A stretch of 64,000 bases of DNA from assembly GCA_040954595.2 (NCBI GenBank), contig CM082594.2, positions 10,668,276 through 10,732,275 of the forward strand, read 5' to 3'. The notes beneath the pieces were generated by a model that had not been told where the DNA came from, made no database searches, and was given only the letters and a program-made list of their open reading frames with translations. Positions 29,801 to 54,896 of the stretch are shown one piece after another. Position numbers and translations under genes: made by a program. Within the stretch, counting starts at the first letter, position 1. Each line of letters opens with the position of its first letter. Source of the DNA: Balanoglossus misakiensis. Taxonomy: Eukaryota > Animalia > Hemichordata.

Positions 29801-32800
29801 GGACGGTCTAGTCACCAACTGCCAAGTCTCGCTGAAGATACCGGCATTCGGAGATTTGAAGACAAACGGGAATTTCAGGCCATCCCCCGGAAGCAAGACA
29901 CCACTGCTGGTGTTGAAGTAAAACCGCTGAACATTTCCACTCAGGACCGTTTCCAATGGGTTGGATTTAGGAATTAGCTGAAACAAGTAAAAGGAAGACA
30001 AAAATCTTAGATGATGATTCTCTTACTGCCATAAGAGGTAATGCTGGTTGTCAAATCATTGAACGAGAACGACCAAATGAACTCTGACCTACTTTGACCT
30101 ACCTTCCAATCATAGTAGATAGTTGTGGTACCATCATTGACCAGCTGCAAGTGCGAGGTCACTCTCTCGCCGGCAAAGGCCTCAAAGGTCACCCTGGCAT
30201 TGTGACCGATTTGGTCCTTGTTTGCATAGCTGTCACCAGTCCACCTGGCAGGGTAGCCATCAAACAACAGAGCTGGTCCAATCACAGGCTGTGGGATATC
30301 TGGTTGGTCATGTAGAGGGTCCCTGCAAGAAGAAGTAACAGAAACAGACTCTGATTTATAATCCATGACAAACCAACACAGGTAAATGGAACTGCTTGGC
30401 ATCACCAGTCCACCAAAAATCTGGTGATTCAAGATTTGTTTCTAGTGTGTGTGGTTATTATTTCATCAACTTACAATGTATCATCTTCTCCTGGCATTTC
30501 CGTGATGGTTGCATCTTGTAGAGATTCTCTCTCATCTTCTTCTTCAAAGCGTAGCGGTTTGTTGCTGCCAACAACTTGCAGGTTATCCAGATCCTGCAAT
30601 AGTTGAGAGATTGTTAAATCTTTGACTTCTTCTGTCAGGAAATCCTCTGTGATCATTTTCAATCTTATTTTCTCATAATAGTGTTTTTTGATCCTGGCAA
30701 ACAAATTAATAAAACCATGGAAACTCACCGGTTTGTAAGGGTCCAGCTCATCCATCACTTCCTGGATTTGTTGCTTCCGTTGGTGGAGATATTGGGATTT
30801 CTTCCACGGATAATTGATAGGCGTTGATCTTCCTGCTTGCCATGTGGTGCCTTTCTCCTTCTGGATGACCTTGGGGTTACCAATGTGTTCAATTGGGGGT
30901 GGGTAACCTCTCTCAGTCTGCGTCAAGGTCATCTGGACGCCAGTCAGGTCGTCACCGATCTTCTCTACCTGCTTCCAGAACTCACTACCGACACGATCTT
31001 GGAGGGGAGCGTACGAGTTAGACATTACACAGTGAAAGATTGGTCACTAATGCTATATATTGTTTGAATGAATAAAGGATGAGTTCCCACCAAATTTCTG
31101 CAAAAGGGTGATTTTATCCATACTCACATCCTTTCCCATAATCCACAGCCGGAATAGATCTATCAATAAGATATCTCTCTTCTTGGATTTTTCTGTATTC
31201 CTCAGACTGGTTCATTACCAGCTGTTCAACTGGTTTTTGCAGAAGTTCTGTGGGGAAAAAACATGAAAAGTTTTCATGTGTGATTCTTGATATATTTTGG
31301 CTCAAACTTCAACCATCCATAATCACAATTTTTGAGTTCAGGATCAGGAGCTGAAACTACTTACTTGAAATATATCCCTGCTGTCTCTTTCTGTCGATCA
31401 TTTTTTGCTGCCAGTTCTTCAAGGCATTGTTTTCATCCAAGAGTGGATTTTGAGGCGGTACAGCCGACGCCCTTTTCTTCTCAAACTTGACACTGGGTGT
31501 CCTGGGTCGTAGGTCAACCTCTTTCTGCTCAGGATAGTTCTATCAGTGAAAATAGAATGAATATGTCATTATTTGTGAGACGATGACATAACCATGCAAC
31601 TTCTAACCTTCCTCTATCAATCCATAACATCTCCCTAACCCCTCCTTCCCTATATCTCCTTCTATCCCTCCAAACCTCACCTGCAAGTGACCCTGTTGAG
31701 TGGCTTCCATTTTGAACTCTTCCACAGTTCCCAGGATACTGAATGGAATGATGTTACCATGGGAGTCAAATTTTGGACCAGTGCCACCTGTAAAAATAAT
31801 TGAAAATACATTAATTTAACCATCTGACTTTTGTCCATCCACCCTTCCCTACACCATGGCACATTTTGGTTTAAGCCAGTGTTTTTTCAATCGCATGTGG
31901 CTGGACCCATCTACTGGGAAACAGGGGTAAAAGCTAGGATTTCAAGCCCAACCCACCTAGGTAGTCTGGCTGTTTCAATGGTGCATCAGGTGGTGCCGGT
32001 TTGGCTATGGTGATGCGTTTCGTCTTGGGTTTCTCGATTTCAGACTTGGGTTTGGCCTTTCTCACCAGGACTGGTTTGGTTGGTGTCCGCTTTCTCTCGG
32101 CTGATGGTGGTTTGGGCATGCGAATCTGTCAGGCAAAACATATCAAGAAGTTTACATGAGAAAGGTGGAAAATTTCTTGTTTAATGATAATTTGGCATAA
32201 ACAGGTTAACATGTGATCATTTTGGGATAATACATAGACTGTAAACCACCAGAATGATTAAATTAGAGTTTATTTTCTACTCACATCTTTGAGTTTCTCC
32301 ACATCAATAGCCAACGCTTGGATGTCTTCCCCATCTATCACCTGCTTGGGGGGAGGGGCTTGTTCCTCCTCAACCTGCGACTGAGATAGGTTGGGGCTTG
32401 CTGCTTTCTCTGGGGTTCCATCTCGTTTCTTGCCACCTTTCAACTTATCTGAAACGTTCCAGAGAGAGAAATAGCCAGGTTAATCCTATGCTGTCACCCC
32501 TGTTTTCGTGCGTGTGAGTCTGGCCGTAACCATTGACAAGAATACATGTAGGGCTGTTGCATAATGGTGGTGGTGATAGGGTGGAATCAGTGATTGCGAC
32601 AAAATGGTGGTACGATCAGGTTGGCTGTTGGCCTTGGGTTTCTTGACAGTGTTGGATCTTCACATACAGGTACATATAGCTAGAACTGACACCTTTTTGT
32701 ACAAACAGATGCATCCATAATGCTCAAACATGGAGATTCGGGCTGGGAGATTCTGTGAAATCACATGACTGTGGTCAACAGAGTCGTCTGTCATCTCCAT

Positions 32801-35800
32801 GGATACGGTTTTAAATGACTGATATACACTTCTATGCAGCATCATAAGAGTAAACTTCAATAACATGACAAATGCATGTACTGAAATAAAACTTACAAGC
32901 AGTAGTTGACACTCAACATACCTTCTTCAAGTAAACCAAACATGCCATGTACGCAATCATACACGTATTACAAAAATTCTAAGACATATAAAAAAGGAAG
33001 GGAAACATTCTTACAAAACATTCTCAACTTGGTGGATATCGCCAAAGTCGACTTGGACGTCATCTTGGCCACAAACGTTACCAAAGTATACACAATCACA
33101 ACCGCCACCAAACAGCTCGGAGCTGAGGTTTGTTATCAAGACTCAGTCTCCACTTGAGTGTTTCAAACACAGATATGCAAATTTTATGCAGATCAACCCA
33201 TGATACACCTAATGTATCAACAAAAGTTGCTATTTGCTCTAGGCCATACTAAATTAAAATTCTGTTGAATGGAATCTACTGGTAGACTTTTTTTACCATT
33301 TCAGATTATATGTCAATGTACAATGAAAATGTGGTTTAGGTACAATTTACTAAATTATTGCTGAACGTTTTAAGATCATCGTTTCACTATTAATCAGCTC
33401 ATCAGTTTCAGCTTTTGTACATTTTATTTTCCTTTCCAACAGTAACACTGTCAATATTGGTTTTGAAACCAGGCTTCAAATACCACAGCTTTTGTCTAAA
33501 TGCTAATTGTAATTTTCACAAACTCACCAAAGAGCAATTTGTTGACTTTTCAAAGGCGATTGCCATGACTGAAGGGACGTAAATCGAACCACACACAGTC
33601 AACAGATGGTTTTGGACATTGACAGTCGGAGTGTGGAATTTTCTGGTTATCAACTACTTGGTGCTGAGGTGATCTGTAATTCCTTACATCGACCACACTG
33701 GTAAGTCAAAATTCTGCGATTTCCACAGATGCTAATTTTCAGATGACAGCCTTGGACCAACCCCTCGAATACCCCTCAAAGTTAACCCTCCATCCGTCCT
33801 GCATAAGTGTCTACAGCCAACTAACCCACCAATACAGACATTTAGTATGCCACCCTTGCCCCCTTTTAGTAAAAAAACACTTAATTTCGTCGTATTCTCT
33901 AATTGCTTCGTACATTCCTCCAGGCAAGAATGTAATTACACCAGTCAGATATCGATCATGAGATCAGGTTCTAATGGAGCCACTTAGCCAACACCATATG
34001 CTACAGGTACACAATACCCAACATGTAGTCTAACACACCTACTCAGGTGATGTCATTCTAGATGTATCCCCGGGGCACACAGGACTAATTACAAAGTGTA
34101 GACCCGCTAAGTGGATGTTAATCCGTGGCCATGAAAGAGCAATCAGAGAAAAAAGCTGTTGGGATTCTGGGAATCACTGGAGAGAAAGCTAATTTAATTA
34201 CAGACTGGCAACGCAGGGATTAATCGCAGAGACACAGTCAGTGTAAACACATCAGAGTGCTCGCTGAGTAAATGAGTTTGTGTTGAATGAACGCTGAGGA
34301 ACAGAAATTTCTACATACTGGCTGAGGATATATTGCGTACAGCTGAACCAAACCTAGCTCTTGTTTTCTTAGAGGCTCTTGAAGTACTGGCACTGGACAG
34401 GGATGATGTCTGTGACACTGGTCTCCTGCCTGCTGATGGAGATTTCGGTTTGGTTGCTTTGTCTTGCATATTGCACTCTGTGAATCTGTGGCTTCGTCAA
34501 CTAGAGTGCTGTGGAATTCTGTGGCAGTTGGTTTTGTGTTTAAAGTTTCTGTGTTAGTACTTTTATGTTAGAAGTGATAGGCAAGTTATGCTTGATCACA
34601 AGTTTGAAATCTGTTCCCTGTCATATAGTTCGATTGTCAGCTCTAGCTATATACCTGCATCTGATCCAAGGGTTGAAAGTTTCAACACAAACTTGGCAAG
34701 AGCTTATTCTCCAAGCAAGTATTTACAAGTTACAGTTTGACTTCAAAAGACAGCGCGTGAGATTTCTTTAGCGGTTTCGCAGCCAGGCAAAATAATGAAC
34801 TCTTCTTATCCGAGAGTTGCTATAGTTACTGTCAATATGATGTGTACCTGCGTGCCGATACAGTACTTCTTGCGTTGAAACAAACGATTCTTATAATGCG
34901 TGAGCACATCCAAGAGTTTATTTCTATTCTGTTCAGAACAAACAGCTCTGGATAAACGTTCACAAAAGTTTGACGCTGGATCAACAGGTGGTTTTCCAGT
35001 GGAGTTGCCAGGTGTCGGATTGTTCTCCCAGGTCACATTTTTGTGTTGTTGGTCTTGACAGGGCGGTGGACAAAAGACAACGCTCTTAGTTCGATGATCT
35101 CTCCACAAACACCGGATGACAAAAAATAAACCAACTCGCTTGTTCAGATCTTCTCTAGTACCACACGCACGTCCGTCACACAAAGGACATAATTATCCAG
35201 GACAAACAGTGGGACTCGTCCTCAGAGAAACGCTAATTGCACTTTTCCAGGTGATCACACCCTGACACTTGCCCCGTGGAATTGAAATGTAGATTGACCA
35301 CAGCAACCAATAAACAGTGTCCAGGACTCGACCACTGCACACATAGGGATGTTCAAGTTCAAATCAATGCTTCACAAACATTCTAATTTGTCCTCCTTGA
35401 GGAATTCTAGTCCTCATTTTCATTCTAACGCCCTTTCCAAATAAAGCTTGAATTAATATGTTCATATCTGTGATGAGAGTATAAGTTTAGTTTACTTCTG
35501 TGTATTCATCTCATCCCTTGTTTTTTAATGGTACAGTCCAAACAAATCTAGAGGTACATGTACTTCTTTTGGCCAGAATAAATATTCACATCTGTTAGAC
35601 TACAAATATTTACAAACTGGAAGTTTTTTTCCCCACAGCAACTAGTCATGCTAGTTTTATACACAGGCCCTATGGCCTCATTTACATTTACAATTTTACC
35701 ATTTTAAGAAAATTAAGTTCTCATAAAGAAGTTGTCATTTTTGTGTGAAACAGGCTAAGAATAACATTTGTGTGAGTCACCGAAATTAACAATACTTGTT

Positions 35801-38800
35801 CACATTTCTTATGGCCTGGTCTGTGTACATTTCAGTGACGAAATGAAACGTGTGGTTCGTTGTGAAAAGAACGCAAACATCATGAGGGCAGTCTTGCTTT
35901 GTGTCTTATCAGAGCAAGTGGGCCATGGAAACACTATAACAACAACCGTGGTCGGTCAAGACTGACACTGGTCAAAACCGGCCGTGACGGAGAGAAATTA
36001 ATAAGACGTTATCCAGCCAATATTGGTGGCAATTGACAATGTTTAATTAACTGATAAGACAGTGTGGAGTGTTTGATAATCACTTAGAAGTAGCAATATG
36101 GATCTAATATCTCCTTGTTAATTAAACTGCCCTAAATCCAGACCAACAGACAAGTCAGAACAACAATTGGTTCACATTTATTTAGGTACCAACACGCAAA
36201 AATGTTATGTATGCTTAAATTGGTTATTGGGTATTTTTATCGCCAGTGATTTAATGGTCAAAATGCAACATTATTTACACTGTCAGACAACAGCATTGAT
36301 TTTATTGATCAAATTTTCTGTGGCCTGACACTCCGCCCTCCCCCCACTCACCAAAACACTAGACTGCAACTAACCGTACCGGCACTAATCAGCTGTTTAT
36401 CTTTCAGCCATTTTACGTGACCCACCAGGTCAAAGTTTCTTAGGTACAGGATAAAACAAAACAAATGGACACTGTAAATCATTAGCTCAATGCACAAAAT
36501 CCAGACATGCAAACACTCGAAACTAAATTTATGGCTGAAAACGCCACTTGAGAAAAGGCAAATCAATAAGTTGATGGGCATAAAATGGACACAGTTTTTT
36601 CGCTGATTAGAAGTGTGTACCATGACCACACTAGACAAGCTAGCTATGCATAATGTCTCAGTTTTGGAGTAGATTTGGCTTTTGCGGCACTGCTTCAATT
36701 ATAACAACAATATTTTCAGATGCATATCAGTAAACACATGAGTTGCTACAGACTCAGACTGTTAGATACAAAGTCGTGACAGGGGTCTTTAGGAGGAACT
36801 GTATCATGGTAGTTCCAATCGCCTGGGTTGGGTGATTTTTTAAAGATTTCTCTGTAAACTATAATGCTAAGGACAATGTCAAAGAAATACTTTAAGTGGT
36901 TCCTTCTATACAGAGTACCGGTACTTGAAAACTGGTGTGATTAAATTTTAATGATGTGCACTTCAATGTCATATATGAACTCGACAACGCTGTTACTGGT
37001 ATCATGTACATTCTAGGACCAAATTCCAAGCAAGCAAGATACATGTATATAAAACGAACATAAAATTGACACACCAATACACTTGGGTGAATTTTTAGAA
37101 ACAGCACTACTTTCTTGGCAGTTTTATGAATCTCAAAACACCAACAGAAAGAAAAAGATCAGCCGTTCTTGTTAGATGAGGTCAGTCATGCATACTGGAA
37201 TATGCAGTGCTGACAGACAAAAATGTACACCTACTCAGAAAGATTTTAATCAGCCACTGACGACAACCACACCAGAAAATGACCGGCAACTAAACAAACA
37301 CTGAACTGATAATGAACTATATAAAGTCATCACCTTCACTTTGGTGGCCAGAGTCGGCCGTGCTCGCACTCCTCCGGACAGCGTCCACCCCCGTACTCGA
37401 GCCTCTCCGAACTGCTTTCTCCATCGGCTCAATCGAGATCAGGTCCAACGACGACAGCTTGTTGCTAACTAGCCCCTCTCGGCAGAATAATTGACTGCCA
37501 GCACTCAATTGCCAAACAGTAAAATATAGACTCAACACCTCATGATCCCATGCACTGTGACACCTGGGTTAAAATTCTTTTGCTGAGTACCAAGTACTGT
37601 GACACTATCAATTAGAGGTGTCAACCCCCTTTTTATCCAGTCGGACTTAAACATTTAGCAGTTGCCATGGAGACTTGGCACTGCCGCACTCCTTAAACAA
37701 AGCTGCCCTAACCCAGTCCCAAATGGTAAAAAAAAATATCCATAAGACCAAGGAATGTCACAAACATGTCAATAGACGCGCTCTGTTTGTATTTAATCCC
37801 ATCCACTGCATTTCTAAAGTATCCTTTTGCTATTTACTAGAGCAGCAATAATACGAGAACTCAATCGTGGGAGCGCATATCTGACTAATTAGCAGGGCAC
37901 TTGCTCTCAACACAGACCAAAGCACCAGTTGTGAGTATGAAAAGACACTATATACCTAGGTATGATACCTTTGTGTATTTGTGTCGCGGTAAACACTGCA
38001 TTGTATGGCTTTCCACTGATTGTCATTCGTCTCACTGTATTTTTTTTTCCACTTGCATGGTTGCAATTACGCCGTCATGCAGGTTGCACATAATGGTCTT
38101 AATGCTTCTTGGCTGGAGATGATGTTTACATTGAAAAGGGTCTCGTTTCAGAGTACGTGGCTGGGAACAAGTGAAGCAGAAATCTGCTTGAAGTGGCCTT
38201 TTTATTAGAAGGTGATGTGATTAATTTGAATACTTGTCAAGCTGCACTGTACAGCCTAGCTATTGATCTGACAGGTTTTTTGTGCATATGTGTGTGTGTT
38301 GTAATCACTTCGTCAATAGCAACAGGTGGCATGTCCTCAAATGAAGATTGGATTGATAGCGCTTGGAAAAACAAAGGAAGGTTCATATGTTGTCACTGAT
38401 GGTGCTGCACGTATAACGCGGCTCAAACCAATGTGATTCCCAGTCACCATGGAAACTGGTGTCAATTTCTCTGAAACGTGACAAATTTCTGTTTAATATT
38501 CTGTTTCCATGTAACAATGAAATGACTTTCCCAAAGACATTTTTTATTCATGACCATAATTATGAAAAGGCTATCGGAGGTCTCTATGCACATCAGTTTC
38601 TTAAAACATAATGAAAATTTGAAGACCTTTGGTCAACAAAGAAGATACCTCAGGGTGAACTACAACCTGCCTGAGTTGATCGAATTCTATGATATTCAAA
38701 TAATACCTTGTGTGCAGTGGATACATCTAACATCTTGTGAGCACGCTTGACTAACTCTGAATTATATGAAACATACATCCAGACTTAATACTATCAGGAG

Positions 38801-41800
38801 AAACTGAATTGAAGTATAGCAAGTGACAGGAATAAGAATCAGCTCACTCAAGCATTGAAAAGGATTTGGCGAAAAGAAAACCAAAAGATATACATGTAAC
38901 TGTACATACATTGTAAATATGACAAGATAATACTAATTAAAATTCCTGTCATGGCAACCTGTCAAATCAATACCCAGCCAGCAATATTGACAAAAGAATT
39001 AACGCGCAGAAAATAAATTGCATGTACTCATCTCTCATCTATGAAAGGAAGTGACACCATGTCAAAGCTGCCAGGGAAAACATTCGATCCGCGACAGTAA
39101 TGGGAGAACTGAATGGAAAGGAAGCAGGTAATTCTGAGACCTGTCGGGATAGTTAGGGATTAACAACAGACAGGAAGCTCTATGTGATGGGGACGAAGAT
39201 GTCAATTTATACAAATCGGGAAATAATCAGTGTGTGAGTAATTGTCACCACACTGATCCATGAAATATACATACGAAGCAGAGTGATTCCACGGAGCTTC
39301 TTCCAGGGGGCAGAGCCACGACCACTGCCCGGACTTCGCGGCGAAAGCGACAACCGCCTACTGGAGCTTGATCTCCTCTGTAATTGGGCGCGGGATGGCT
39401 GTCTGAGTATCAGTTTGGCAGGCGCCTTCTTCTCGGTCGATTTCTGACTTGCTGTGTTGTCTTTCTTGCCGAGGGCTGCCTTGTCAACGCCATCACTACC
39501 CGGGACCTGCAACAGAGCTTTCTGCATCGTCGGCTGATTTCAGAACATCACAGTTTTGATCAATACAACAGATGAGTTTTGTCTTTTTTCTTCAATGACT
39601 CCTTGCAAAAATCCAGAACGGTAGACAGGCAGATGATCCACACCACTCAATTCTGCTCATCACAACTTTTTCTCCGGATCATCACCTCTGAAGCATCTTC
39701 TAAATATTTGCTTCAAGTACCGACATGTTGCTAGGCAACCCTTCATTTAATTCTTCTGCCTGTGGGATTCTCAACTGGCGGGGGAATCTTCCAAGTAAAC
39801 AGTTCATCAATGTTGTGAGCTGAGACTCAGTTATAACAAGCTATTGCTCGTTATCGATATCGATTGTTGAAATCCTGTCTTCTCGCGACTCCAGCACTCT
39901 CATCCGACGGACGCACACAACGTTAATGGGGGAACTTCACTATGTACTTCAAGAGTGACAGGAGCAATTCTAAAATCCCGCTGGATGTCGTATCCGTGAC
40001 AGCCTACTAAGAGTGCACCAATGGTGAAATTGACACTGAATTGCGAGGCAGACTGAATATGGACAACAATCTGATGAAGAAAGGTCCACAAAATGATGCA
40101 GACACACCGGTAATTATACCACAATACTTCAATTATGATCCACCATCAACGAAAGTTGATCCAAGATCGGAAAATCTGCTCAGCATTCTCATCGACACTC
40201 AAGCTCGCTTTCATCTCCGAATTCGGCAATTGACAGACTTCTGCAGGCTCAGATGCCCTTTCAAAGAGATGATTTTCATGCATATTCCTCCCTAATAACA
40301 ACAGGTTCAGGGTGATTCCATCGTGAGATATTTTAAGGGGTGGCAGCATGATTGCTTGCTCACCTGTGAAGATCAGTGAAGCTTATACAAAACATGATGA
40401 ATGCCCAAGCAGAATGAATTTGTTCCACTCCATTGACTTCTGGGTCTCAAGAGAAATAATGTGTAAAACACAAAATTATGGGCTGTAGTCTCCTGAGAAC
40501 TACATTACCTTATAAAAACGATGAATAATAATAATGAAGACAATCATAGAAAATAACCAGGCTGATTGCTAATTAATCTTAGGATAACACACACATGTTA
40601 CTATGGTAACAGTGTCATCAATAACCACAGAACTTTGTATCGTTCATGGAAACAAATGTGCAGTATTAACATCTGTGAAAGGCAAATAAATTGGAATTAT
40701 TTTTCACACTTAAATTTGAATATACAACAGGTATTATCATTTGCATCGATGTGACTCTTCCATCACAACTAAAATCATCAATTCTGTGCTTGTAAACCAT
40801 AAATGTTACATGACCTTAAAAGGAAATTGATTGGGAAACGGTAATTTGTTCTACAAATCATTGAGTGGGACTTTTTTTACACTGTGGAGAATTTAGTAGG
40901 TGTACACAATCATGTACTTCAGCAAAGAAGTGGTGATAGTAATATATAGGGCATTCACGCTATGATGTATCGGTTTCAGTGTTGTGTTGTTTGCAATGGT
41001 ACAAGCTGAAAAGGATTACACCTAGTGATACTCAATCAATGCAAATTGTTGTACACTTGTGCTGGTACATACAATGTACATGTGCTGGTATAATTAGCAT
41101 GATTTCTATGAATGCACACTGGCGATTAATGAGTATAAACCATGACTGAAATGTATACATGCACCTTAAGTATCTTCCTGCACCCAATTTTATCATTATT
41201 ATACAGTTTTGTGAGAATAATTCCTGGCAAAAACTTCCTTTACAGAGCTTCTTGCTAGAATGGTGACAATGGTTCAGATAAGAATGTAGATATCCCATGA
41301 AGATAAATTGGATGTTACCATGGAAACTGGACGACCCGAGGCATCATAAAATAATATTCCATTGACGGCTGGATGAGATAAGCTATGGCTCAGAACTGAT
41401 GAATTGAGATGACTTGAAGAAGAATAACATGTCTCAGGTAAATCCAGTGAACTTTCCAACGAAAAATCCCATTATCAGTCACCTAAAGCCTATTCATAAT
41501 TTTTCAATGTCAGATTTTATATTTCTATCACATAAAGTTACATTATTTATGAAATCATTTTTTTACCCAGGGTTTGAAATGTGTTATAGATCCTGTGGTG
41601 TCTGACAGACTTTAATGTAATATTTGAAAAAGATCAGCTTTTAACAGCTCACAGTACCTGGAGGGCTTCCTGCATAGACTGAATCACATGAAATACATAA
41701 CCCATATTTAAATGCAGTGAACGTCCACACAATAATTCAAAGGCTACGAGTGATGTGGTGTGTAAATTTACTCATAGTCTATAATTGATCTTGGTTGATG

Positions 41801-44800
41801 ATTGCAACGGGGTGCAATTTTGCACGCCACGGTGATTTTGATCGAGTTCTGAAATTAATCATCAACTGTAACGGATATGGTCAGTGTGATGAACAATGAC
41901 ATTAAATTGCCTGAGAGAAAATAAATGTAACACGCTGAACAATGCAAAATTCTACTGAAGGTACAGAGATCCTCGTAAGCCATTTAATGTTTGATTTTAG
42001 TGCTCAGGGGGAAAATACAAATGTGTTAGTTGATTATTTTTTGCAAATCTGTTGCAAATTTTTATAAATATTCACCTCAAGGGGGCGCTGTCAATAGCTA
42101 AATCTTCAACCAAGAATTACAGACTTTCATGTGCAGACCAGTCCAGTAAATGTTCATCCAACCATTTAGTTCAAAGCTAATACCATTGTGAAACTGACAG
42201 CCTAACCATACATGTTATATGAAGCTTTCCAATTAACTGAAACTAACACACTGTGTCACGTTGAGCCCTCATCCAAACATGCAACGTTGCAAATAACCCA
42301 ATATTATGTCAAAGTTGTGCTTTATAAAGATTTATCTGTTTGCTGGCTCACTTCACTCGACAGTGGTAGGATTAAAAAACACCTGATTCTGATGACTTCG
42401 ATGACTGCATCTGATAAAATCTGACACCCCACACCCACATTTATAACACTCCACCATTGTTTTATACATCATCTGATCTACCAGCAATCTGCTAGAGTCT
42501 CTAGATTACTTTAACAATCTGCAACTGCAAACTATAATGCAGTTTTCTCTTCCAAATTTTCAGAAAGATATAAATTTCTGCAGTTTTTGTTTTGTCAGAA
42601 TTACAAAACAAGTGTAATAGAGGTCGCTGATAACAGCGACACTCGTACCTTCTCAATGGTCACATTTCCACGGCAACTGATATGGCCACTGACATTCCAT
42701 TGTGCCACCAGGCAGATTATCGATTATTTGAACACATATACATGTAACACAACTGATTGCGAAGTATGCATTTCAGTCCTGCAACTGTAAATGCTGGTTA
42801 TACACAACTCATTCTGAAAAGCTGGATACATGTACTTGGGACTTTAATGTTCTTGGGTGTACAGTGAATTCATTAATAAAATGTGCTTATAATTATGGAG
42901 ACTACATTATTTCAGTTCTCTTAATTAATTTATTTTTACTTGTTATCAAAACATCAATGCATATATATGAACTCCATTTCATGCAGCTCAGTTTCAGCCA
43001 GGTGATGTTTGTTGAGACTTTGTTTACGTGCTTCAATCACTCTGGGCCCAGTCACTCGAACAGTTTATTCAAGTTTCTCAGCACACAATTATCGGTAAAT
43101 TTATTTTCACCACGTTTGACAAGTCCTTATTGTGTAGGTTGCTGGTGTGTACATGTAAATGTTGACACACCTCAGTGTGTTGTTTTCACTCAAAATTAAT
43201 AGGTCTCTCCTCCTTATTGACCTTGCTTTAGATCATCTAAGGAAGTTTAATACCCCTGTATTTTTGACTGTCACCTTTCAAATTCTGATAATGGAAATAA
43301 TTGTCTCAACTGATATTTAAATTGTTCACGCAAACCAGAAAAATCTTCAATAATTAAAAACAAAATATGCCTGTTGTGCTAGGCAACCTGAAAAGTTGGT
43401 GGTTAACTACTGCACATGATTCAGACAGAAAATTACGTAAAAACTAGACTGCACAAAGCTCTGATAATTAAAGTCACAATTTACGTATCCCAGGACAACG
43501 CACAGAAAGCCACCCCCAAAACACTCTGCAATTCTCCTGACTTGATAGTGTGCTAAAAGCAATGTCAATATGGCAAGCCTAAGTTACATAAAGAAAGGCA
43601 ATTTTCAAGAGGCAGATTCATTAAGCTGAGACCTAAAGCTCACCTCCTTAAAAAGTGTGTTTACAGTTAAAACCCATAAACTCCCGCCCACCCATTCTGA
43701 AGTCAAACTTTTAGCTACTTCAGAAGCCGAGAAAATAGAGCATTTTTTTGACGGATTTGAACTTATTGGTAGCTTTGAAAAGCCACTGTGATATAACATG
43801 TGTTTCAAATCACTAAAATTAACTAGTAAGTAAATATAAACAACTTACTGGTCTGGTTTTGAGTTTTGGCAGCCTCACTTTGTATAACACTGGAGGATTT
43901 CATTTTAGGTGTAGACATACTACGACTAAACCACAGACCCAGACCTTATATTGCCGCGGTTGCAAACGGTTCAGTGTTTTCATGAAAAGTAACTCATAGC
44001 AACCAACGGGGGTCTCCATATCACCCTAACAACTAGGTTTTTTTTTTTGCAGAAGCCTGTGTTACTCACACTCCACAAACTTTGAAGACGTCACGGTTCA
44101 GAAGAAAAGACTATTCTAGCATTACGGTGCGACTGGTGTTTCAATGTCTCAGTTACACCCACAAAGTGCAGGATTGGATGTGTTTTCTAGTCTTTACAAA
44201 TTAGTGTTATTTCAGTATTCTGCTGCAATGTAACCACAGTGGACTTCGATCGGAGAGAGGATTTGCTCAAATGTTTGGTACAAAATTTGTGTTGCTACGA
44301 CCAACATACCAATTTCAGTCATGGATCAGTATTTCAGGTATCTGTATTAATTATCTGTGTGGTTACACTGATAGCAGGGATTCAATTTGGGAGTCATAAG
44401 TGGATTATTTTAGTTTACCTTCTGATATCGCGACTAAAGCCACCGTCCCTCTCCGTTTCTTGTTCAGCTCCTTCAACTTAGAGTCCCTGTGCGGAAAGAG
44501 GGATCCCCGGCGACGATTCACATCCATGCCTCCTCCTCCCGACAACCCCGGAGTCAGCCGGAAAAATGAGGTACGTAACTGGTGTTTTGTCGCTAGTAGT
44601 GAGGCTGTTTGCTCTCCATGAATAGGAGAGCTACCTATCGGCAATGTTTGCCAAACAGTTCTACAGGCTTTTTCTGTACTTCACATCCTTTTGTCCATAA
44701 ATCATTTACTCAGACCCCTGCCCCTTCAATACCTAGCTCCGCTTCATTGCCAGATGCTACACACTTGCAAACTTCCCTGCATGATAGTCACACATATTTG

Positions 44801-46040
44801 TTACTATGGAAACCTCAGAACTTTGATCTTTTTGATATTAATAGCTGCCTTTCAAATAAACACTCAAAAATTCAGACCTTGTATTACAGTCATTAATCTA
44901 AAGCATCTCATTTCAAATTTACATTAAAGATGTTTCCACACTACAGCAAGTGAAGATAATGCATTCTTAGAAGCTGACAAAAACAACATAGGTGAGTAGT
45001 CAACTAAAACTTGAATTATGATACTTCAAATGCTTGTAACTTCAAAAGGTCATAGGTTTATGAACCGATGAACAATGTGTTTTATTGTACATGTACATTG
45101 TTCCTGATTGGAATGTTCACTTCTTGGATGTCCATGGAATTCACACCTGTTTAATTATGATCATTTTTACATCTACTCACACTGTATTTACTCAATGTCA
45201 CATCTTTCGATACACATACATGTACTTATATGTAGTCATTGTAGTGTACACTATGTAGTGGGACACAGTTACCTCCTGGAAATTTACCATCTGGACACTT
45301 CCCAGCTACAAGTCAGAGCTAGAGTAAGGGATAGTGTTGGGGTAAAAGTCCATGGGGGTAACTCTGTCAGAGAGTCCCTTGATTGAGGACTGTAATACTG
45401 GTAGCACTCTGTTTGCTATTGCCATCAGATGGGTGGGAAAGATGGGTCTCTGCCACATGGTGGTAGATAAGATACGTGATCTTGGTTTCAAGTTTAGTGT
45501 GGGTGGGCGGGGCAGTCTCCTTGTTGGTATCTCTGTGCAACCGGTCTTGTCGACACAGGTAGTCTGAGATACGAATTTGTTGCCACGTTGCAACCAATTG
45601 ATCGTGATCCGGAGACGGTTGAATTCATCAAAACACAATTTATGTACGGGGTTAAGCAAGGTCGCAAAGTGCAAACAGAATCCGTTTCACACAGGATTAA
45701 CATTCTGGTGTTGGGAGGGAAGGGAGACTACGATCAGTGATACTGGGAAACATTTTGAGATGGCCCTCCCCTGAAAATTAAATACGACGGATAACACTAC
45801 TTCTGTTGGGCGAGTAGGTGGGAAATGATAGTGGAAATCAGTGGTACATCAGTATTATTTCGGACTTTGTAAGCAAACACTGTACGATTTCAAATCTGTG
45901 CCTGAAATCGAATGATGGAATCTTGATTGTCAGAACGAGAGATAACTTCAGGGCTACGTGTTTGAGATCATATCTCAGTACTAACCGGTGGATTTGGGCC
46001 GATCTTTCTTTGAGGGCTTGCTGCTTAGCTTGGTACTCAT
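23875..46040 (-). CDS. MYCBPAP: MYCBP-associated protein (ciliary/flagellar central apparatus); likely ancestral first exon 45986-46040 spliced to common exon 32285-32448
   Basis: Motifs VIDGEDIQALAID, ITIAKPAPPDAPLKQPDY, QKPVEQLVMNQSEEYRKIQEERYLIDRSIP, EFWKQVEKIGDDLTGVQMTL, LVNDGTTTIYYDWK and FYFNTSSGVLLPGDGLKFPFVFKSPNAGIFSETWQL. Last exon 23875-23973, polyA signal at 23823-23828. Confidence 0.9.
33015..33063 (-). CDS. MYCBPAP: MYCBPAP candidate alternative first exon (MTSKSTLAISTKLRMF)
   Basis: caagATG start, 49 nt (3n+1), donor T|gtaaga; in frame with the exon starting at 32448. Confidence 0.65.
34319..34469 (-). CDS. MYCBPAP: MYCBPAP candidate alternative first exon (MQDKATKPKSPSAGRRPVSQ...RARFGSAVRNISSA)
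   Basis: 151 nt (3n+1), donor A|gtatgt, X-box at 34816. Confidence 0.72.
37334..37424 (-). CDS. MYCBPAP: MYCBPAP candidate alternative first exon (MEKAVRRGSSTGVDAVRRSASTADSGHQSE)
   Basis: 91 nt (3n+1), donor AAG|gtgatg, locally GC-rich, X-box at 37661. Confidence 0.68.
39275..39527 (-). CDS. MYCBPAP: MYCBPAP candidate alternative first exon (MQKALLQVPGS...RRSSSSRRLSLSPRSPGSGRGSAPWKKLRGITLL)
   Basis: 253 nt (3n+1), donor C|gtatgt, GC-rich coding-like composition, X-box at 39727. Confidence 0.75.
43849..43903 (-). CDS. MYCBPAP: MYCBPAP candidate alternative first exon (MKSSSVIQSEAAKTQNQT)
   Basis: aaaATG start, 55 nt (3n+1), consensus donor A|gtaagt, X-box at 43989. Confidence 0.65.
44419..44527 (-). 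CDS. MYCBPAP: MYCBPAP candidate alternative first exon (MDVNRRRGSLFPHRDSKLKELNKKRRGTVALVAISE)
   Basis: 109 nt (3n+1), donor AAG|gtaaac, X-box at 44800. Confidence 0.72.
45986..46040 (-). CDS. MYCBPAP: MYCBPAP first exon at the shared CpG promoter (MSTKLSSKPSKKDRPKST)
   Basis: accATG start, 55 nt (3n+1), donor G|gttagt; directly downstream of a YY1-like CAAGATGGCG and the CpG-rich promoter. Confidence 0.75.
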
Positions 46041-46099
46041 GGTGTGGAAGTAACGTCTTGAAGAAGCTCAGAACTTGGAGATCTGTTCTGTAAACAACA

Positions 46100-46620
46100 C
46101 TCAATCAACAACAATCGCCATCTTGGGATTCCCTGATATCACCCAATAACGCTTTATTGGTTTCTATGTTGATACACGGATAAAATATAGTACGGAATTA
46201 TACTCCGCTATCTACCTTCTTATTGGGATACTGATGATAAATTTCAATTACATCAACCTATTTATACTTTTTGCAGGATAAACTCAAAGCAAAGAGTATT
46301 TATTTTGGATGGAATCATATTCCGAAGTTCTGACATGGAGCCTAGCGGATCAGTTTCACACAAATCGTATTTCGTGATCAGACCTTGACGACGGGGAACT
46401 GCGCAAGTGCACGCAGCCAGACGCGTTTCCCGGGAGGTGACCTTCGACCCCACTTCGAACGTACCAACCGGAAGTGTAAATAAATCGTCTGCTGTATGAT
46501 CAGGACTGCTGCATGATGTAGGAAAAGTCGCGCCGTAGCGCATCGGGAACGATCACGCCATGCCAGACTGGACTGAAGGCTGCTGTGAAGCATTTGACAG
46601 ACTGGATTTCAGCAAGGTTT
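46100..46620. promoter_or_regulatory. Bidirectional CpG-rich promoter MYCBPAP/PEMT
   Basis: CpG-dense; YY1-like CGCCATCTTG (~46116) and ETS/GABP-like CCGGAAGTG (~46468); divergent genes on either side. Confidence 0.65.
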
Positions 46621-47126
46621 CATAACAAAGCTATTTTAGCAAGTTTATCGTGTTTGTTGCATGCCTGTTTGTTTACGTGTACATGTATGATGTACTAAAG
46701 TTCACTTCGGTGTACACATTTGATCGCGATCTGTCGAGGCTAGACACAGTCTGAAACCATGGAGTAATACCGAAAGTCGTGTTATGTAATCTGAAATACA
46801 TGTAGACTGATTTCAGTTGAATCCCTGGGTAGCACTGAGAGGGGTACCCTTTCACCACAATGGTTGGATCCAAATCCATTGTTTTCTGCGGTGAATTTGG
46901 ACCTCTACATAAGGAAACAGGGAAGGGGGTTAACTTTATAGACATCAGTAATCTTAAATCTTAATGCAACACAGATTTGACAGATAAGCTTCAATCACTT
47001 TGCATGGTTGTCTGATCTTTTTGTTTCGTAATAGATATGGATAATTCCATTGGTTCATTCTATTGTTAACGAGATTAATGTTTTTTGACTTTGAACAGAA
47101 ATCTCTTATTGTTCTTTCAGGCATCT

Positions 47127-50100
47127 ATGTGGCCACTTGACAAAATGGAGACTCTTATAAACTGGAGAGATCCCAATTTGTATTTTTCTATCAGCATGAT
47201 TCTGCTTAAGCCAATATATTGGACTTTGGTAAGTGTATTGCAAAGTATTGGAATTATTTTTCATCTCATAAGTACAGGTTGGTAAGCTCAACAAAAGTAT
47301 TTACAATTTTCTTTTATGGTAACTTAATCTTTGAGTATTTGCCATTGTATAAGAAACTCTTTAATAATTAGTTTTGAAAATATGAACTCAGGTAACATGA
47401 CTCAAAAAGTAAAACTGGTATCTAAAAGTATGTGTTGATCCCGAATGTCAAGTTTGAATGTTAACGTGTTTATTATACTGTTAATCCACTTGTTCTGTCT
47501 GGCATTATTTGTCAGTCTGTGGGAACTGCTTTGTAAAGTGGAATCGATGGTTTATTTGTGAGCAGTCTCTCTACGCTAATTACAAAAGTTTGTTTGGAGA
47601 TCGATGATGCTGTTGAATTTTTAATGATGAAGCCACTTTGCAAAATGACCGCGCATGTCTGGAATCATTTGAAAATTTTCAAATTTTAACTGTTGCTATT
47701 TTCAGCATCACTGTTTTCAGAATACAAAAGATAACGTATTTATTTTCAGGAACATGTAAACACTTTTTAAAGAAATAAAAGTTGTTAAGTATTTCTCAAA
47801 GCCAATAAAGGGTTTAACCCAATCAGACAACAACTTCGTAACTTTTCACTTACATGTCACAGACTTTCAAGTATAAAAGATTTAATTAAAGTGACTATTT
47901 TCAGTTTTAACACATTGCACTATGGAAAAGTTGACCTTATACTTTCGGATACAATTTCACGTATTCCATTTTCACATTGTACTACTTGGTGTATAAGAAA
48001 ACCAAGATTTAGCCTGGTGGGTGACAGTGCAAATGATCAGATACGGTGTTTATTGTGTGTATGTATGTATAGTTGGTGAGATCTGTGCTTTTCTGTTTTA
48101 TTTTGTAAAATTCAGTTTGTACCTTTTTCTTAAAGGAAGAAATAAAACAGTAAGTTTGAGTGATGCAACAGACAGCCAATGGTGTTCAAAAACAGGCATG
48201 TCTCCATTGAGAGCTTCAAAGAGCTTCAAAGAGAAAAAAAAATCAATGAGGTGAAATTTGAAGAAAAACTTAATGAGACTAAGGAGATAGAATATTTATA
48301 AGTTATAGCTAAGCCCAATTTATCCATGGGTGTGTTTGTAGTAATAGGAGATGCTCCCTTTTGTTTGCGTTGTTGACACCCATTGTTAGAGATCATCACT
48401 GTATACCATGGGAACTTAGCAGGTGCATGCTAACATCCTATTCCAGTTTGAAATTAGTTTTTTGTCCGTTAAAGTCAGAGTATTTTGGCCGCCAAAAGTA
48501 GCCTTTGAACCAACTGCCAATTTTTGGTCAAATGTTACATCTGTTTAAAATAAAGATGGAAAGGAACGAGTCTAACATTTTTAGAAAGCATACCATTTTG
48601 CACAAAGAAGTTACCTATGCTTTCAACTAAGAATATTTATCAGCTTTTTCAAACACAAGTTGTGATGGAAGCATTACTGAGACAGTTTTATGAAATCCCG
48701 TTTTAGTTTTTACAAATGTTTGGCCAAAACAGAGCTACTTTGTGTAAAGACATCCTGCACAAGTTTTGTAAGTAAATGTTGAGAAGTTGTTTCTTCCCAC
48801 ATATTTTCTACCCATACTTCTTGTCAAGTTGAAGATTGCATCAGGTAATCACACCCTATTATCTCCTAATTTCATGCTAGTCACAAATTTGCCAAATTCC
48901 AATACATTGAATCAAGAAGCTGGGGAGCCACGTTGTTTGCATAGCATGGTGTATACAGAGAAACAAAAGATATTCATTGCTATTATGCAGCCATTTTAAG
49001 AAGCTAAACTGATCAGTGCATGACGTGTCTCTGAGGAACAGGCCAGAATTTCTCACATTTTTGAGTGTTTGTCAAACGAGAAAAACCCAAAGTTGGCAGT
49101 ATCGGACAATAATTACCTCTTGAAAAAGTGTTGATCACTTTTTCCATGGTAGTGTTTGAGGAAGAAAGTTATGACTTTTTGAAGGTTAGTTTATAGCAGG
49201 GTGAACACTAGTATAAATTGTAGCGTGAAGAGTGAAAGAGGGTCGTTAGAAGGTGTGTGGGAGAAAAGTCCCAAGTTGGTCTCTCAGTGAAGACAGAAAT
49301 GTAACAGCAAAAAGAAGAAAGCTGGCAAACAGCCCTGAGGGTGAAAAATATGAAGGTACTGAGAATCTTACAATATATGCTGGCAGTGCAGTCTGGCACA
49401 GGTTGTTGGTTGGCTGTGGAGTTTCCGTTGGTGTCTTTCGGAGCTTTCGGCCGCATTGCTGAAGCAAGCGACAGCATTCTGTGTTCTTTGTGGGACAACT
49501 CACACAGGTGAAAATAGCCTGTGAGTTGTTCCACAAAAACCACAAAACACCGCCAGAGGTATAGATGCAAGCTGAGTCACCAGGTAGCAAGGAGCATTGC
49601 AGGTAGCCAAATAAACAGCCAGCAGCTAGCTGAGGGTTGCAGAAGCACAAGCATGGGTGAGTGTGGCAGCCAGCAGGACTGAGATGCAACCGCAGGGAGT
49701 GGATGGACAGAGCAGCTCTCTGCAGCGATGTTCACCCCTTCCAGTCCCGAGTGTGGAGTGAGGTCAACAGGCGCTGGTCAGTCGCCTTTAAGTAGCGAGG
49801 GATGGCGCGGACATTGTGAAAGACAGAAGGAGCACAGCTCAGCCAATACAATTCAATTTAGCAGCCAATAATAGAGTGGGAAAATAGGGGATTATGCTGA
49901 GCCGTAGATCCCTCACATATGCAAATGAGGATGCTACCGGGAAGAATTGATCTGCTGTGGCCTTCATAATTCCCATCTATGCCTTCAAGCAGTTGAACAA
50001 GTTCTGTTGTGTATGGAAACAACAGTGTTGACAAATTATACTTTTGTTCCCCATTGCTTTGGGTAAAAAAAGAAGATGGAGCTGTAAAACATACAACACT

Positions 50101-53100
50101 TTTCCCACGTGCATGAAGAATACTATTAGGCCAGAGACACCCATGTCTGAGTTACTATTTTGAGCGCATTCCTATGCATCGTGCGTTTGGATGGAATTGT
50201 GAATATTTACTGAAGCTAGAGTTTATCCTGATAGCTTATGCAGTTTTAAGCCCCTATTACCCTTGCAGAATTTGTGGTGAACTTTCCGTTTGAAATAAAG
50301 AAGGACCCACATCCGCATGTCACAACTGACAGACACACACACCCATAGTCCGTGACGCAACCAGAAGTCACCCATCACCTTCATAAACACATTTTAGTGT
50401 CATCTTATCAGGCATTTGCTACCCTAAAAAAACAATACTCTGAATTTTCTGCAACTAGCGTCAGCGTTTTTGTGAAATTGTTTTTCTTTGGTGTCAACAG
50501 AGCCATCACAATGGCTGAATAGGGCAGTAGTTACATGTCTTGTTTGTGTGAATGGGGTGCAACAATCGCAATGTGGTTTTTACCTTGGTGTGAAATGACA
50601 GCTTAGCTTTTGTGGGCAGGTCAAAGATTTCAAACAGTATTGTACATGTGTTGACAACTGTGTGGCCAAACTCCAGTGAGGTGAACCAACGAACCACATT
50701 GTTGCGCGATTTTTTAGCTCTAGTGTTTTCACAACACGTATAAACATATTTGTGTATTAGTTGCACATTTTGGTACAGTTACATGAATGTTCTCACAGGT
50801 TATGACAACTACATGTATGTCAGCTGCATTGTCTAGGTGACTGCATCACAATTATGTCACAATTTCAAAATATGCTAAAATTATCACTTGTATCGTTAGT
50901 TTTCTACATGCAAAATAATATCAGTAACAACATTTGTTTGTATCAACACTTGGTTTGAATTAAACACCAAATGTTTTGTGTCGATTCAAGCCAGTTTCTT
51001 TCACACAGTTCTAAACTTTAACTTTAGTCTTGTGAGTTTTTCAAGTTGCCAACACCTGCCAGACTCTGCACTTTACAAAAGGAATAAATAATATTGATTC
51101 CTTTCACAGCTTTTGTCCTGCGGCTGATCTCAAGTTTTCAACCCATTAAATAACTTTGCAGCCAGTTCCCAGGGTCCACCTTTTGTCCCGTACAATTTCC
51201 ATGGCAACAGTGTGAATTCCCAAAATACTGCTGATGAAACAGGAATTTGCAGAGATGAACAGGTGTAGATGTTTGCATGTATTTCTAGATTTTCTTTCCC
51301 AACCATTTCCAAACTTAATTGGTGATTAATTGCTTACCTCCTAAATTAGCACTTAGTTTCTTGTTAGCCGAATGGAAACCACTTTTTGGTGCGTTCTGTC
51401 TCTTGCTCATCTTGCTGCTAACAATCGACCACTTGCTGACTTTTGCTGCTGCTGTACTTCCAGTAGTCTGTGGAAGTAACAAAAATATGTGAGCAGAAAT
51501 TTAGTTTTGAAGTGTTGTGCAGAAATAGATGCAGATATAGATGGTTTTAGGGATGTTCATGTCAGTTGGTAATATTAGTTCATGAATTAATGCAAGACCT
51601 ATCACCCCCATTCATAGTGGAATGGTCTATGTGATCATTCAAAATATCTGAAGTTGGAACATTCTTCTTTCAGTACATTTTTTCAAACATGGCGCATATG
51701 CAAACCACAGTCCATGTACTTTATTTTTTTCTCAAACTTTCAAAGTGTTTGATTTCTAACTCTGTGTGCAGACTATCTCTCTCAGTAAATTCTGCATGTG
51801 TGTGTGTGCAGTCTCTCTCTGGTCTACATTTTGCTCCCTGAAACATTCTCTCACAGTCCCTCTGAGTAACTCTTTTGGCCGAGTGATCACAACAGGTGTA
51901 ACGGCCATTGTAAAATGCTGATCAATAATTCACACTCATCTGATCAATTTCTGCTCATTATCTCCAGTGCCAATCAATCGTGCGGTCACCTTTCATAACC
52001 ATTCCAAATAATTTAAATCTCCTCGGCAAGAATGGAACTATTGTCACATTGGTAATTGTATAATCTTTTGTGGTGTTGGAAGTCAACTGACTGGTCCATG
52101 GGGAAAGTCTGATCCGTACCAACCAAAATAGAACTATTTCAAAAAAGCTTTGTTATTATCAAATTATGAGACTACAATCACAATATTTTTCTACTGAGAT
52201 TCAGTGTCAAAAAAGTTCATTCAATGAATGTTCATAAGAAAACCTTAGTCACACATGTCGATCTGTTTATGGTGAATATTTCACGCCCGACTAAATGTCA
52301 AATATTGACCTATGATGTACTGAACCAAATTTATTTTGTGAGTTGTATGAAGCGACCGATGTACAGGAGTTGACATATTAAACAGAGGAGGGTCCTAACT
52401 AGCATAACATAGTGTCACATTGTGTTTTCACTTCACAAAAGGGATTGTGTATTAAACTATTTACTTTGCCGGTAATCCACCTACCTTAACTTTATAACGC
52501 ACTCATCCCCTACAGATGGACTCCCTGACAAAATCTTCACACTGGGATTCAAACGTCCCCGTGAAACAACAGTGGGCAAATTTTGTGTCGTTGTCGAGAT
52601 TTGTGCGTTGGCCTCAGAACAGGTTGGACTTAATCACACGGATATAATGCTTTGGATATGCGAGGGGGGGCCTAGACGATGCTTTGTTTACCTGACAACG
52701 TGTATGAGAGTGGAACGGTGTATAGCCAGCAGGTACCAAACATGTGTTGGGCTTTTGTTTTGTCTTGTGTCCTTTCTCATTGATCGGCAGACGGCCCTCT
52801 TTTAGACAATGCTAATTTCAGGGGGCTTTTTAGTAACGCTGTGGGCTAAACAAAAAGCCCACTTTCTTTTAATACTATGGCCAGCAGAGCTGGAAACTCA
52901 ATGGTCTTGTTTAATTGTGAAGATTTTTGAAGTCTCACATTATTTTGACTTGAGACTTGGGGCCAAAAAATCGAAATAGAGGAATTAAAACTTGTATGTA
53001 CCGGTCAGGTATTTTTCAGTTCAGTGTAGATCTGTGTATTTCATCATCATTTTCTGTGTATTATCATCACAGGCATGCAGACTGGAATATCACACACGCA

Positions 53101-54121: not shown

Positions 54122-54685
54122 TTCAACAGTATCCGAACAAAATTGCGATGATTGGATCAAATATAGGGCATTATATTTTACAATCAATTTTTTTAAATTC
54201 ATCTGTAGAAGCAAAACATTATGAGAGATAAAATCTTAAGAAATATACATATCAGTTCTGAGAGTGTACTATTTTACCCAAACATAGCATAATGCGATTG
54301 GGAAATATCTATGCCACTATGGAATATGTGAAAATGTTACTATCACAACCTTTCCACTCTCCAGTGGCAACAATGGGGGAGACCTTTCAATCATCGGTGG
54401 GTACTGCAGGTCAATTTTACGAGACACAATTAAATTTATTTAAATACACGCAAGTTTAAGTGGAAAATGCTGAAAGATAGATAATTTTGATCACTACACT
54501 TTCTGGAGTTACAACTTTGTTTTGACGACGTTTTGTTGACATTCAGGCGATCATCACACATTGTCCCTGACAGTGGAATTGAACAATGGTTGCTCAACTA
54601 AACCTTGAACTAAATAACAAGATTATACTTTTCTCAATTAAACTACCAGTGCTCCCCACGTGCAAACCAAAAAATATTCACTCAC

Positions 54686-54896
54686 CTCCGCCATGATGGA
54701 ATTGGTAATTGTCACAAAAATTGGAAAGTTTGTTGGTGAAGCATTGGAGGTTGAAACTCAAAAAGTCATGTCTGTACAGAATGCTGTTGTATAAATGATA
54801 CCAAAGGTTTGGCTGTGTGTCATCACTTTTCGCTCCGACGATTGTCTCCATGCGAGAGCTATTTGATCTTTGTCCCCTCATAAAAACCCCTGTCAT
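54686..54896 (-). CDS. Weak candidate distal first exon beyond the PEMT 3' end
   Basis: A 70-codon open frame ends in phase 1 at a consensus donor GAG|gtgagt; an alternative reading (ATG GCG GAG) is phase 0. Confidence 0.35.

Follow-up and report, generated by a model that had tools for sequence, protein, structure and literature searches.

The gene MYCBPAP, read on the minus strand of the 64,000-nucleotide stretch of Balanoglossus misakiensis DNA analyzed here (contig CM082594.2, positions 10,668,276 to 10,732,275; the window hereafter), is preceded by a series of short coding segments that can be joined in frame to one constant exon, exon 2, at its acceptor 32448. Because unrelated short exons each fit one constant exon in frame, alternative promoters would give interchangeable N-terminal heads, and we favor, with a probability of about 0.6, the reading that the 5' end of MYCBPAP offers plain, protein kinase A (PKA)-responsive or calmodulin-responsive heads. 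An architecture with four or more heads on the constant exon is very probable, and a set of six or more heads is probable.

Probable coding first exons upstream of one MYCBPAP exon

The exons downstream of acceptor 32448 were assigned to MYCBPAP, in agreement with the first-pass annotation, since PF14646 was found above the Pfam cut-off in all three exons scanned. An 89-residue exon of this gene is 93% identical to that of Ptychodera flava, 89% to that of Glandiceps talaboti and 81% to that of Saccoglossus kowalevskii, and the solved MYCBPAP-family structures 9IJJ and 7N61/7SOM were matched in the PDB with E values of 3e-186 and 2e-28.

When the ten candidate first exons (V1 to V10, numbered from acceptor 32448 outwards; Table 1) were compared with 105 heads of relatives of at least 10 residues, the matches of V4, V6, V7 and V9 were reached by none of 150 shuffles. 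V4 matched Glandiceps isoforms X1-X4 from end to end (score 147, null maximum 65), V6 matched isoform X5 (63, null maximum 50), V7 is identical to the head of X6, and V9 matched the start of a Ptychodera RefSeq protein (99, null maximum 41). In the Glandiceps and Ptychodera models these four heads are all joined at the same point of the constant exon, and the Glandiceps models begin at a methionine equivalent to that of V4, V6 and V7. A third V4-type head was present in the 171-residue protein P0275, and across the three enteropneust-like sequences the V4 head drifts except for its last 15 residues, which hardly vary. An exon 2 search for further enteropneust heads returned two matches, both already known; in another, six of nine representatives were inspected, of which one, P0275, was the new V4-type head and four appeared to be frames read through from genomic DNA.

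Against the same 105 heads, the best matches of V1, V2, V5, V8 and V10 were reached by 65, 74, 143, 79 and 90 of the 150 shuffles, respectively, the last value referring to the 70-residue reading of V10, for which no orthologue was found among them. The similarity of V2 to the echinoid long head was thus not significant, and V3 had no clear orthologue, its best match being reached by 6 of 150 shuffles.

All ten segments share the geometry that the first-pass annotation had described, i.e. each is a stop-free minus-strand stretch of 3n+1 nt that runs from an ATG to a GT and continues in frame into 32448. This geometry was discarded as evidence, since it occurs at chance level: under one donor rule, passed by all ten candidates, the region 32500-55500 contained 26 phase-1 minus-strand ATG-to-donor pairs, against 16-25 in the five control classes of strand and phase (18, 17, 25, 16 and 21). 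A filter for basic and disordered composition, whose thresholds were chosen after the peptides had been seen, was passed by 6 of the 26 pairs (V2, V3, V4, V6, V7 and V9) and by 1 of the 97 controls, which falls within V4 but is read in a different frame; no further convincing head came from the 16 phase-1 pairs of this region that are not among the candidates. The proposal that several unrelated coding first exons feed one MYCBPAP exon is supported for four of the ten candidates by the gene models of relatives, and V2 and V3 are likely first exons as well. The original count of 9-10 is not supported, since V1, V5, V8 and V10 had no orthologue among the 105 heads and failed the composition filter; the array is real but smaller than first claimed.

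The peptides are mutually unrelated, as had been stated, the best of 45 pairwise comparisons giving a z of 2.0. Paralogy among V1-V10 was rejected at both the protein and the DNA level, the only DNA similarity (V5-V6) being due to overlapping flanks. The description of the peptides as mostly rich in K, R and S fits V1-V4, V6, V7 and V9 but not V5, V8 and V10, in which K and R account for just 9-11%.

Serial splicing of the segments to each other, which the first-pass annotation had named as an outcome contrary to its proposal, does appear as a minor mode, in the acceptor of V9 and in three bivalve models. V9 is the sole candidate with a strong, open phase-0 acceptor so close to its ATG (51467, 57 nt upstream), and among the 17 strong acceptors of the region this is the only one that reads open to a candidate donor. 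Because the three-codon phase-0 start of V10 (54694-54686) fits this acceptor, V10 may be the leader of a V9 isoform; both V10 frames are open, and the V10 donor is the strongest of the ten. Against such a leader, the Ptychodera model starts at the V9 methionine, and V10 has phase-1 ATGs further upstream from which the reading frame stays open as far as this donor. We give the leader role even odds. Acceptors scoring 2.5 or more were found neither within 500 nt upstream of V1, V2, V4 and V5 nor closer than 400 nt upstream of V3, V6 and V7.

Heads across phyla and their motifs

Several distinct heads per isoform set were observed in a hemichordate, a brachiopod and a crinoid (Glandiceps 3, Lingula 5, Anneissia 3, with 1 in Antedon), in bivalves (Mya 4 and Mercenaria 7, the latter from five starts, two of the seven being the ancestral head plus an extra piece), in sea urchins (Lytechinus variegatus 6, L. 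pictus 4, Strongylocentrotus 5), in other echinoderms (Amphiura 3, Apostichopus 2, with 1 in Asterias) and in tunicates (Ciona 3, Styela 2). One head was found in 7 of 8 lancelet entries, in 13 of 14 lamprey entries, the remaining one being truncated, and in the 9 and 9 long entries listed for two coral clusters of 10 and 22 members. For vertebrates, the statement of a single head is based on lampreys, gar and single entries, and oyster, mussel, abalone, limpet, nemerteans, scallop, bird, hydrozoan, sponge, frog and bichir were covered by single representatives.

The residue at the junction was D, N, H or Y in 104 of 107 head rows, seven of which were re-anchored by hand, and E in the other three, whereas D, N, H and Y make up 12% of residues elsewhere in the heads; this set leaves out vertebrates and lancelets (junction G), hydrozoan, sponge, flatworm, several unnamed entries and those cut short ahead of the anchor. 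Such a preference is expected where a conserved phase-1 intron splits an xA(T/C) codon. Heads of both the ancestral and the non-ancestral kind were present in Logan proteins of about 850-890 residues on contigs of 3.0-3.8 kb. Since the length of these contigs hardly exceeds that of the coding sequence, they are probably spliced transcripts, which gives support independent of the RefSeq predictions.

Nearly the same 18 residues as those of V7 start MYCBPAP in corals, anemones, crinoids, sea stars, bivalves and Lingula, and V7 is, on this comparison, the ancestral head, kept since cnidarians. An extra piece follows the ancestral head in three bivalve models, and two bivalve models have a head of two residues. 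Two otherwise alternative heads stand in tandem in the Diadema model P0094, which reflects serial splicing or else the merging of annotations. In sea urchins there are two similar heads with double PKA sites (Lytechinus P0095 and P0190; Strongylocentrotus P0098 and P0203), apparently a duplicated first exon and one way in which the array grows.

The consensus of PKA is RRx[ST] followed by a hydrophobic residue at +1. Motifs were counted in the 52 heads that were left when 32 ancestral-type and 2 two-residue heads had been taken out and near-duplicates merged; as related species share heads, there were fewer independent events than these counts suggest. The complete PKA motif was present in 22 of the 52 heads (mean 1.0 and maximum 5 in 2000 composition-preserving shuffles), and in none of the 32 heads of ancestral type; its density in the MYCBPAP bodies was 0.00 per 100 residues, and the +1 residue was hydrophobic at 27 of 45 RRx[ST] sites. 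By clade, it was found in 5/10 heads of echinoderms, 9/18 of molluscs, 2/3 of hemichordates and 6/6 of the unnamed transcripts. Within the window, V3, V4 and V6 hold five RRx[ST] sites (shuffle mean 0.60, reached in 2 of 5000), of which one in V4 and two in V6 have the hydrophobic +1 residue. There is a good chance that the PKA sites of the heads are functional.

A second class was defined by the calmodulin pattern with anchors at 1, 5, 8 and 14 (PMC4076516, Table 1) and a net charge of +3 or more. This basic motif occurred in 7 of the 52 heads (shuffle mean 1.23, reached in 2 of 3000) and in none of the 32 ancestral ones, and none of the seven heads has a PKA-type site. It is present at the end of V2, where exon 2 contributes the last anchor. 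Calmodulin binding by the heads is judged less likely than not. The heads are basic, with net charges from +1 to +15, and residues 1-64 of the Ptychodera AlphaFold model have, nearly all of them, a predicted local distance difference test score (pLDDT) under 50, which is consistent with a disordered N-terminal tail.

Promoter signs and layout of the locus

Sites resembling the RFX X-box were spotted by eye, and the X-box consensus was applied afterwards; neither these sites nor the PKA-type and calmodulin-type motifs figure in the first-pass annotation. The 14-mer consensus gave nine strand matches in the window, all of them within 34816-44813, against a chance mean of 0.43 per 64 kb, and none of 100 shuffles reached this number. 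When 13-mers are allowed, V2, V3, V4 and V6 each have an X-box 200-347 nt before the ATG; 14% of the positions of the region would qualify, and the probability of such a placement for 4 of 10 candidates is about 0.04. Upstream of V7 the sequence is CpG-rich and has CCAAT, YY1-like and ETS-like motifs but no X-box. The stretch at 46200-46800, also upstream of V7, is the most CpG-rich of the region (observed/expected 1.0-1.2), and it may harbor a nested or bidirectional transcript. No convincing coding exon lies downstream of the X-box-like sites at 38443, 40597 and 41314 or of the 13-mer at 36435, which are possibly enhancers, non-coding first exons or parts of long leaders of V3 and V4.

Table 1. 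Features of the MYCBPAP locus, in positions of the window
Feature	Position	Strand	Description
Constant exon 2 of MYCBPAP	32285..32448	-	164 nt; phase-1 acceptor 32448; 94% identical to Glandiceps and 89% to Ptychodera MYCBPAP
Other constant MYCBPAP exons (approximate span)	23878..32125	-	tblastn with P0002 residues about 80-887; PF14646 matches
V1, candidate, unsupported	33015..33063	-	16 residues; geometry only; no orthologue; half X-box upstream
V2, likely	34319..34469	-	50 residues; passes composition filter; X-box 347 nt upstream
V3, likely	37334..37424	-	30 residues; one RRxS; 63% GC; passes composition filter; X-box 237 nt upstream
V4, supported	39275..39527	-	84 residues; two RRxS sites; basic-hydrophobic conserved end; 13-mer X-box 200 nt upstream
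V5, candidate, unsupported	43849..43918	-	ATG 43903 or, earlier in frame, 43918; good donor; X-box variant at 43989
V6, supported	44419..44527	-	36 residues; two RRx[ST]-hydrophobic sites; X-box 273 nt upstream
V7, supported, ancestral	45986..46040	-	18 residues; without PKA or calmodulin motif; without X-box
V8, candidate, unsupported	49372..49477	-	35 residues; GC-rich upstream region; no orthologue
V9, supported coding exon	51338..51467	-	ATG 51410; strong phase-0 acceptor 51467; may be internal
V10	54686..54896	-	70-residue phase-1 head, or leader with three-codon phase-0 start 54694-54686
X-box-like 14-mers (six)	34816, 37661, 38443, 40597, 41314, 44800		cluster 34816..44813
X-box-like 13-mers	36435, 39727		within the 34816..44813 cluster

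In the C-terminal half of MYCBPAP (24500-28860, minus strand) there are small cassette-like exons, among them 25922-25890, a 100% match to Ptychodera residues 734-744, and 28077-28003, a weak match to an insert of Glandiceps X1, so that this half is probably alternatively spliced as well. Upstream of MYCBPAP and on the same strand lies a bHLH gene with the appearance of an E-protein (59262-59537, HLH match). A BRCT-containing gene (22060-22500, plus strand, weak BRCT match), which we take to resemble XRCC1, stands tail to tail with MYCBPAP, and a TFIIF alpha neighbor was located at 15421-15696 on the minus strand.

Competing explanations and meaning for ciliary control

MYCBPAP is the homologue of Chlamydomonas FAP147, which is described as the rachis protein of C2a, a projection of the central apparatus (PMC9113940), and its loss in mouse is reported to cause C2a collapse and an altered beat (PMC13345628). 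Its direct binding partner MYCBP (PMC13345628) is described as having an RII-like AKAP-binding domain and as connecting MYCBPAP with AKAP scaffolds (PMC4901443). According to an account of invertebrate cilia, Ca2+ and cyclic AMP (cAMP) are antagonistic there, cAMP raising beat frequency and opposing calcium-driven arrest, and stimulation of hemichordate and echinoderm larvae leads to ciliary arrest or reversal (PMC7017327). We propose that each head would have its own promoter, of the RFX type for V2, V3, V4 and V6 and of the CpG/CCAAT type for V7, and that promoter choice would select a plain (V7), a PKA-site (V3, V4 and V6) or a calmodulin-type (V2, perhaps V4) head. The heads would sit in the disordered tail of an invariant C2a scaffold, where PKA phosphorylation or calmodulin binding could alter the action of C2a on the beat, and different ciliated cell types may use different heads.

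A number of observations weigh against this proposal. Four of the ten candidates (V1, V5, V8 and V10) have nothing but a geometry at chance level, three of the six full X-boxes have no assigned exon, and an X-box alone is reported to be no predictor of RFX control (PMC2375033). PKA-type sites were found in 0/7 heads of tunicates, 0/4 of the brachiopod and 0/4 of annelids and nemerteans. The calmodulin signal is modest, since a fixed register gave 4 of 52 heads with shuffles reaching up to 5, the match in Styela, one of the seven, looks spurious, V4 has the 1-10 spacing only and not 1-5-8-14, and the motif rules are of limited specificity (78% true negatives; PMC4076516); moreover, the available portions of two C2a accounts name no calmodulin in the projection (PMC9113940, PMC12297659). 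The Ptychodera structural model is of low confidence overall (predicted template modeling score, pTM, 0.26), the RefSeq isoform models are predictions, and heads of related species are not independent samples.

The array might instead serve transcription only, RFX-driven promoters covering the ciliated tissues while the heads are incidental disordered tails without a function of their own. The turnover of heads between phyla, their unrelatedness within the window (best z 2.0), the two-residue head of two bivalve models, the predicted disorder of the tail and the clustering of X-boxes at this place would all agree with it. Nevertheless, a PKA-type motif about 20-fold above composition-matched shuffles in three clades, the near invariance of the last 15 residues of V4 and the retention of V7 since cnidarians make this explanation unlikely. 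It was also considered that the heads are functional but serve as docking or targeting elements, i.e. tubulin-binding basic tails, import signals or amphipathic helices for MYCBP or the PKA regulatory subunit rather than for calmodulin. FAP147 threads through the wall of the C2 microtubule, by an end that the account available does not state (PMC9113940), and the direct contact of MYCBP with MYCBPAP (PMC13345628), the basic charge of the heads (+1 to +15) and a possible tuning of charge-based binding by RRxS sites are all compatible with docking. The hydrophobic preference at +1 (27/45 sites), however, suits kinase recognition better than plain charge. Calmodulin targets are typically basic, and so is the amphipathic class of heads, and we judge the docking alternative quite unlikely.

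It is very unlikely that there are only a few true first exons, most segments being chance ATG-donor pairs or serially spliced internal cassettes behind one or two promoters. The chance-level geometry, the strong in-frame acceptor of V9 with the fitting three-codon start of V10, the three bivalve models with an extra piece behind the ancestral head and the tandem heads of Diadema can be accommodated in this way, but not so easily the lack of acceptors scoring at least 2.5 within 500 nt upstream of V1, V2, V4 and V5, or closer than 400 nt for V3, V6 and V7, nor the Glandiceps models starting at the equivalents of the V4, V6 and V7 methionines.

Interchangeable heads on a shared core have precedents. 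In the clustered protocadherins and UGT1A, variable first exons lie upstream of shared constant exons, as in the MYCBPAP array, but they are large tandem paralogues encoding folded domains, whereas the MYCBPAP heads are of 16-84 residues, predicted to be disordered and not paralogous, except for one duplicated pair of sea urchins. MYCBPAP is not a cluster of that type, because its exons are not paralogues. In PDE4, promoter choice puts unrelated N-termini on a shared core and thereby changes its targeting and its regulation by PKA, the PKA site being in the shared regulatory region of the long forms; MYCBPAP would likewise put unrelated N-termini on a shared core, but its PKA-type site lies in the variable exon and its core is a structural scaffold. 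In plectin, unrelated coding first exons are reported to join a common exon 2, one isoform being regulated by calcium-calmodulin (PMC3695321). The MYCBPAP array resembles that arrangement in that several coding exons have an ATG of their own, fit one exon 2 in frame (4 of 10 with orthologous joined heads) and are unrelated to each other (the 45 pairs above), and its separate promoters and tissue specificity are putative. It differs in that the scaffold is axonemal and the heads turn over between phyla, one ancestral head being kept since cnidarians while the PKA-type class recurs.

The window gene belongs to the same PF14646 family as the C2a scaffold proteins MYCBPAP, AMAP-1 and FAP147 (PMC13345628, PMC9113940, PMC11759756), of which the vertebrate, lancelet and coral entries inspected show one head, unlike the window gene. 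The word "isoform" had no occurrence in the two mouse C2a papers searched, and no published description of alternative MYCBPAP heads was found in a search mostly without subscription journals and without supplements. The alternative heads are already in RefSeq as numbered predicted isoforms, where they have gone unremarked.

The way in which the axoneme reads cAMP and calcium when the cilia of marine larvae and gills accelerate, stop or reverse is described as a largely open field (PMC7017327). The MYCBPAP locus points to a structural protein of the central pair with alternative N-termini in which both messengers have consensus targets. In its widest and more doubtful form, MYCBPAP would be an axonemal isoform switchboard across marine bilaterians, in which RFX-driven promoters pick a plain, PKA-sensitive or calmodulin-binding C2a head and give every type of ciliated cell (ciliary band, gill, epidermis, sperm) a central pair wired to a second messenger of its own, the heads having been reinvented in several phyla with convergence on two motif classes, and vertebrates and lancelets having a single head. 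Sea urchins, Ciona and bivalves are tractable hosts in which the isoforms are annotated and RNA data exist. MYCBPAP would be a deeply conserved case of variable first exons, one in which the same kinds of motif recur as the exons themselves are replaced.

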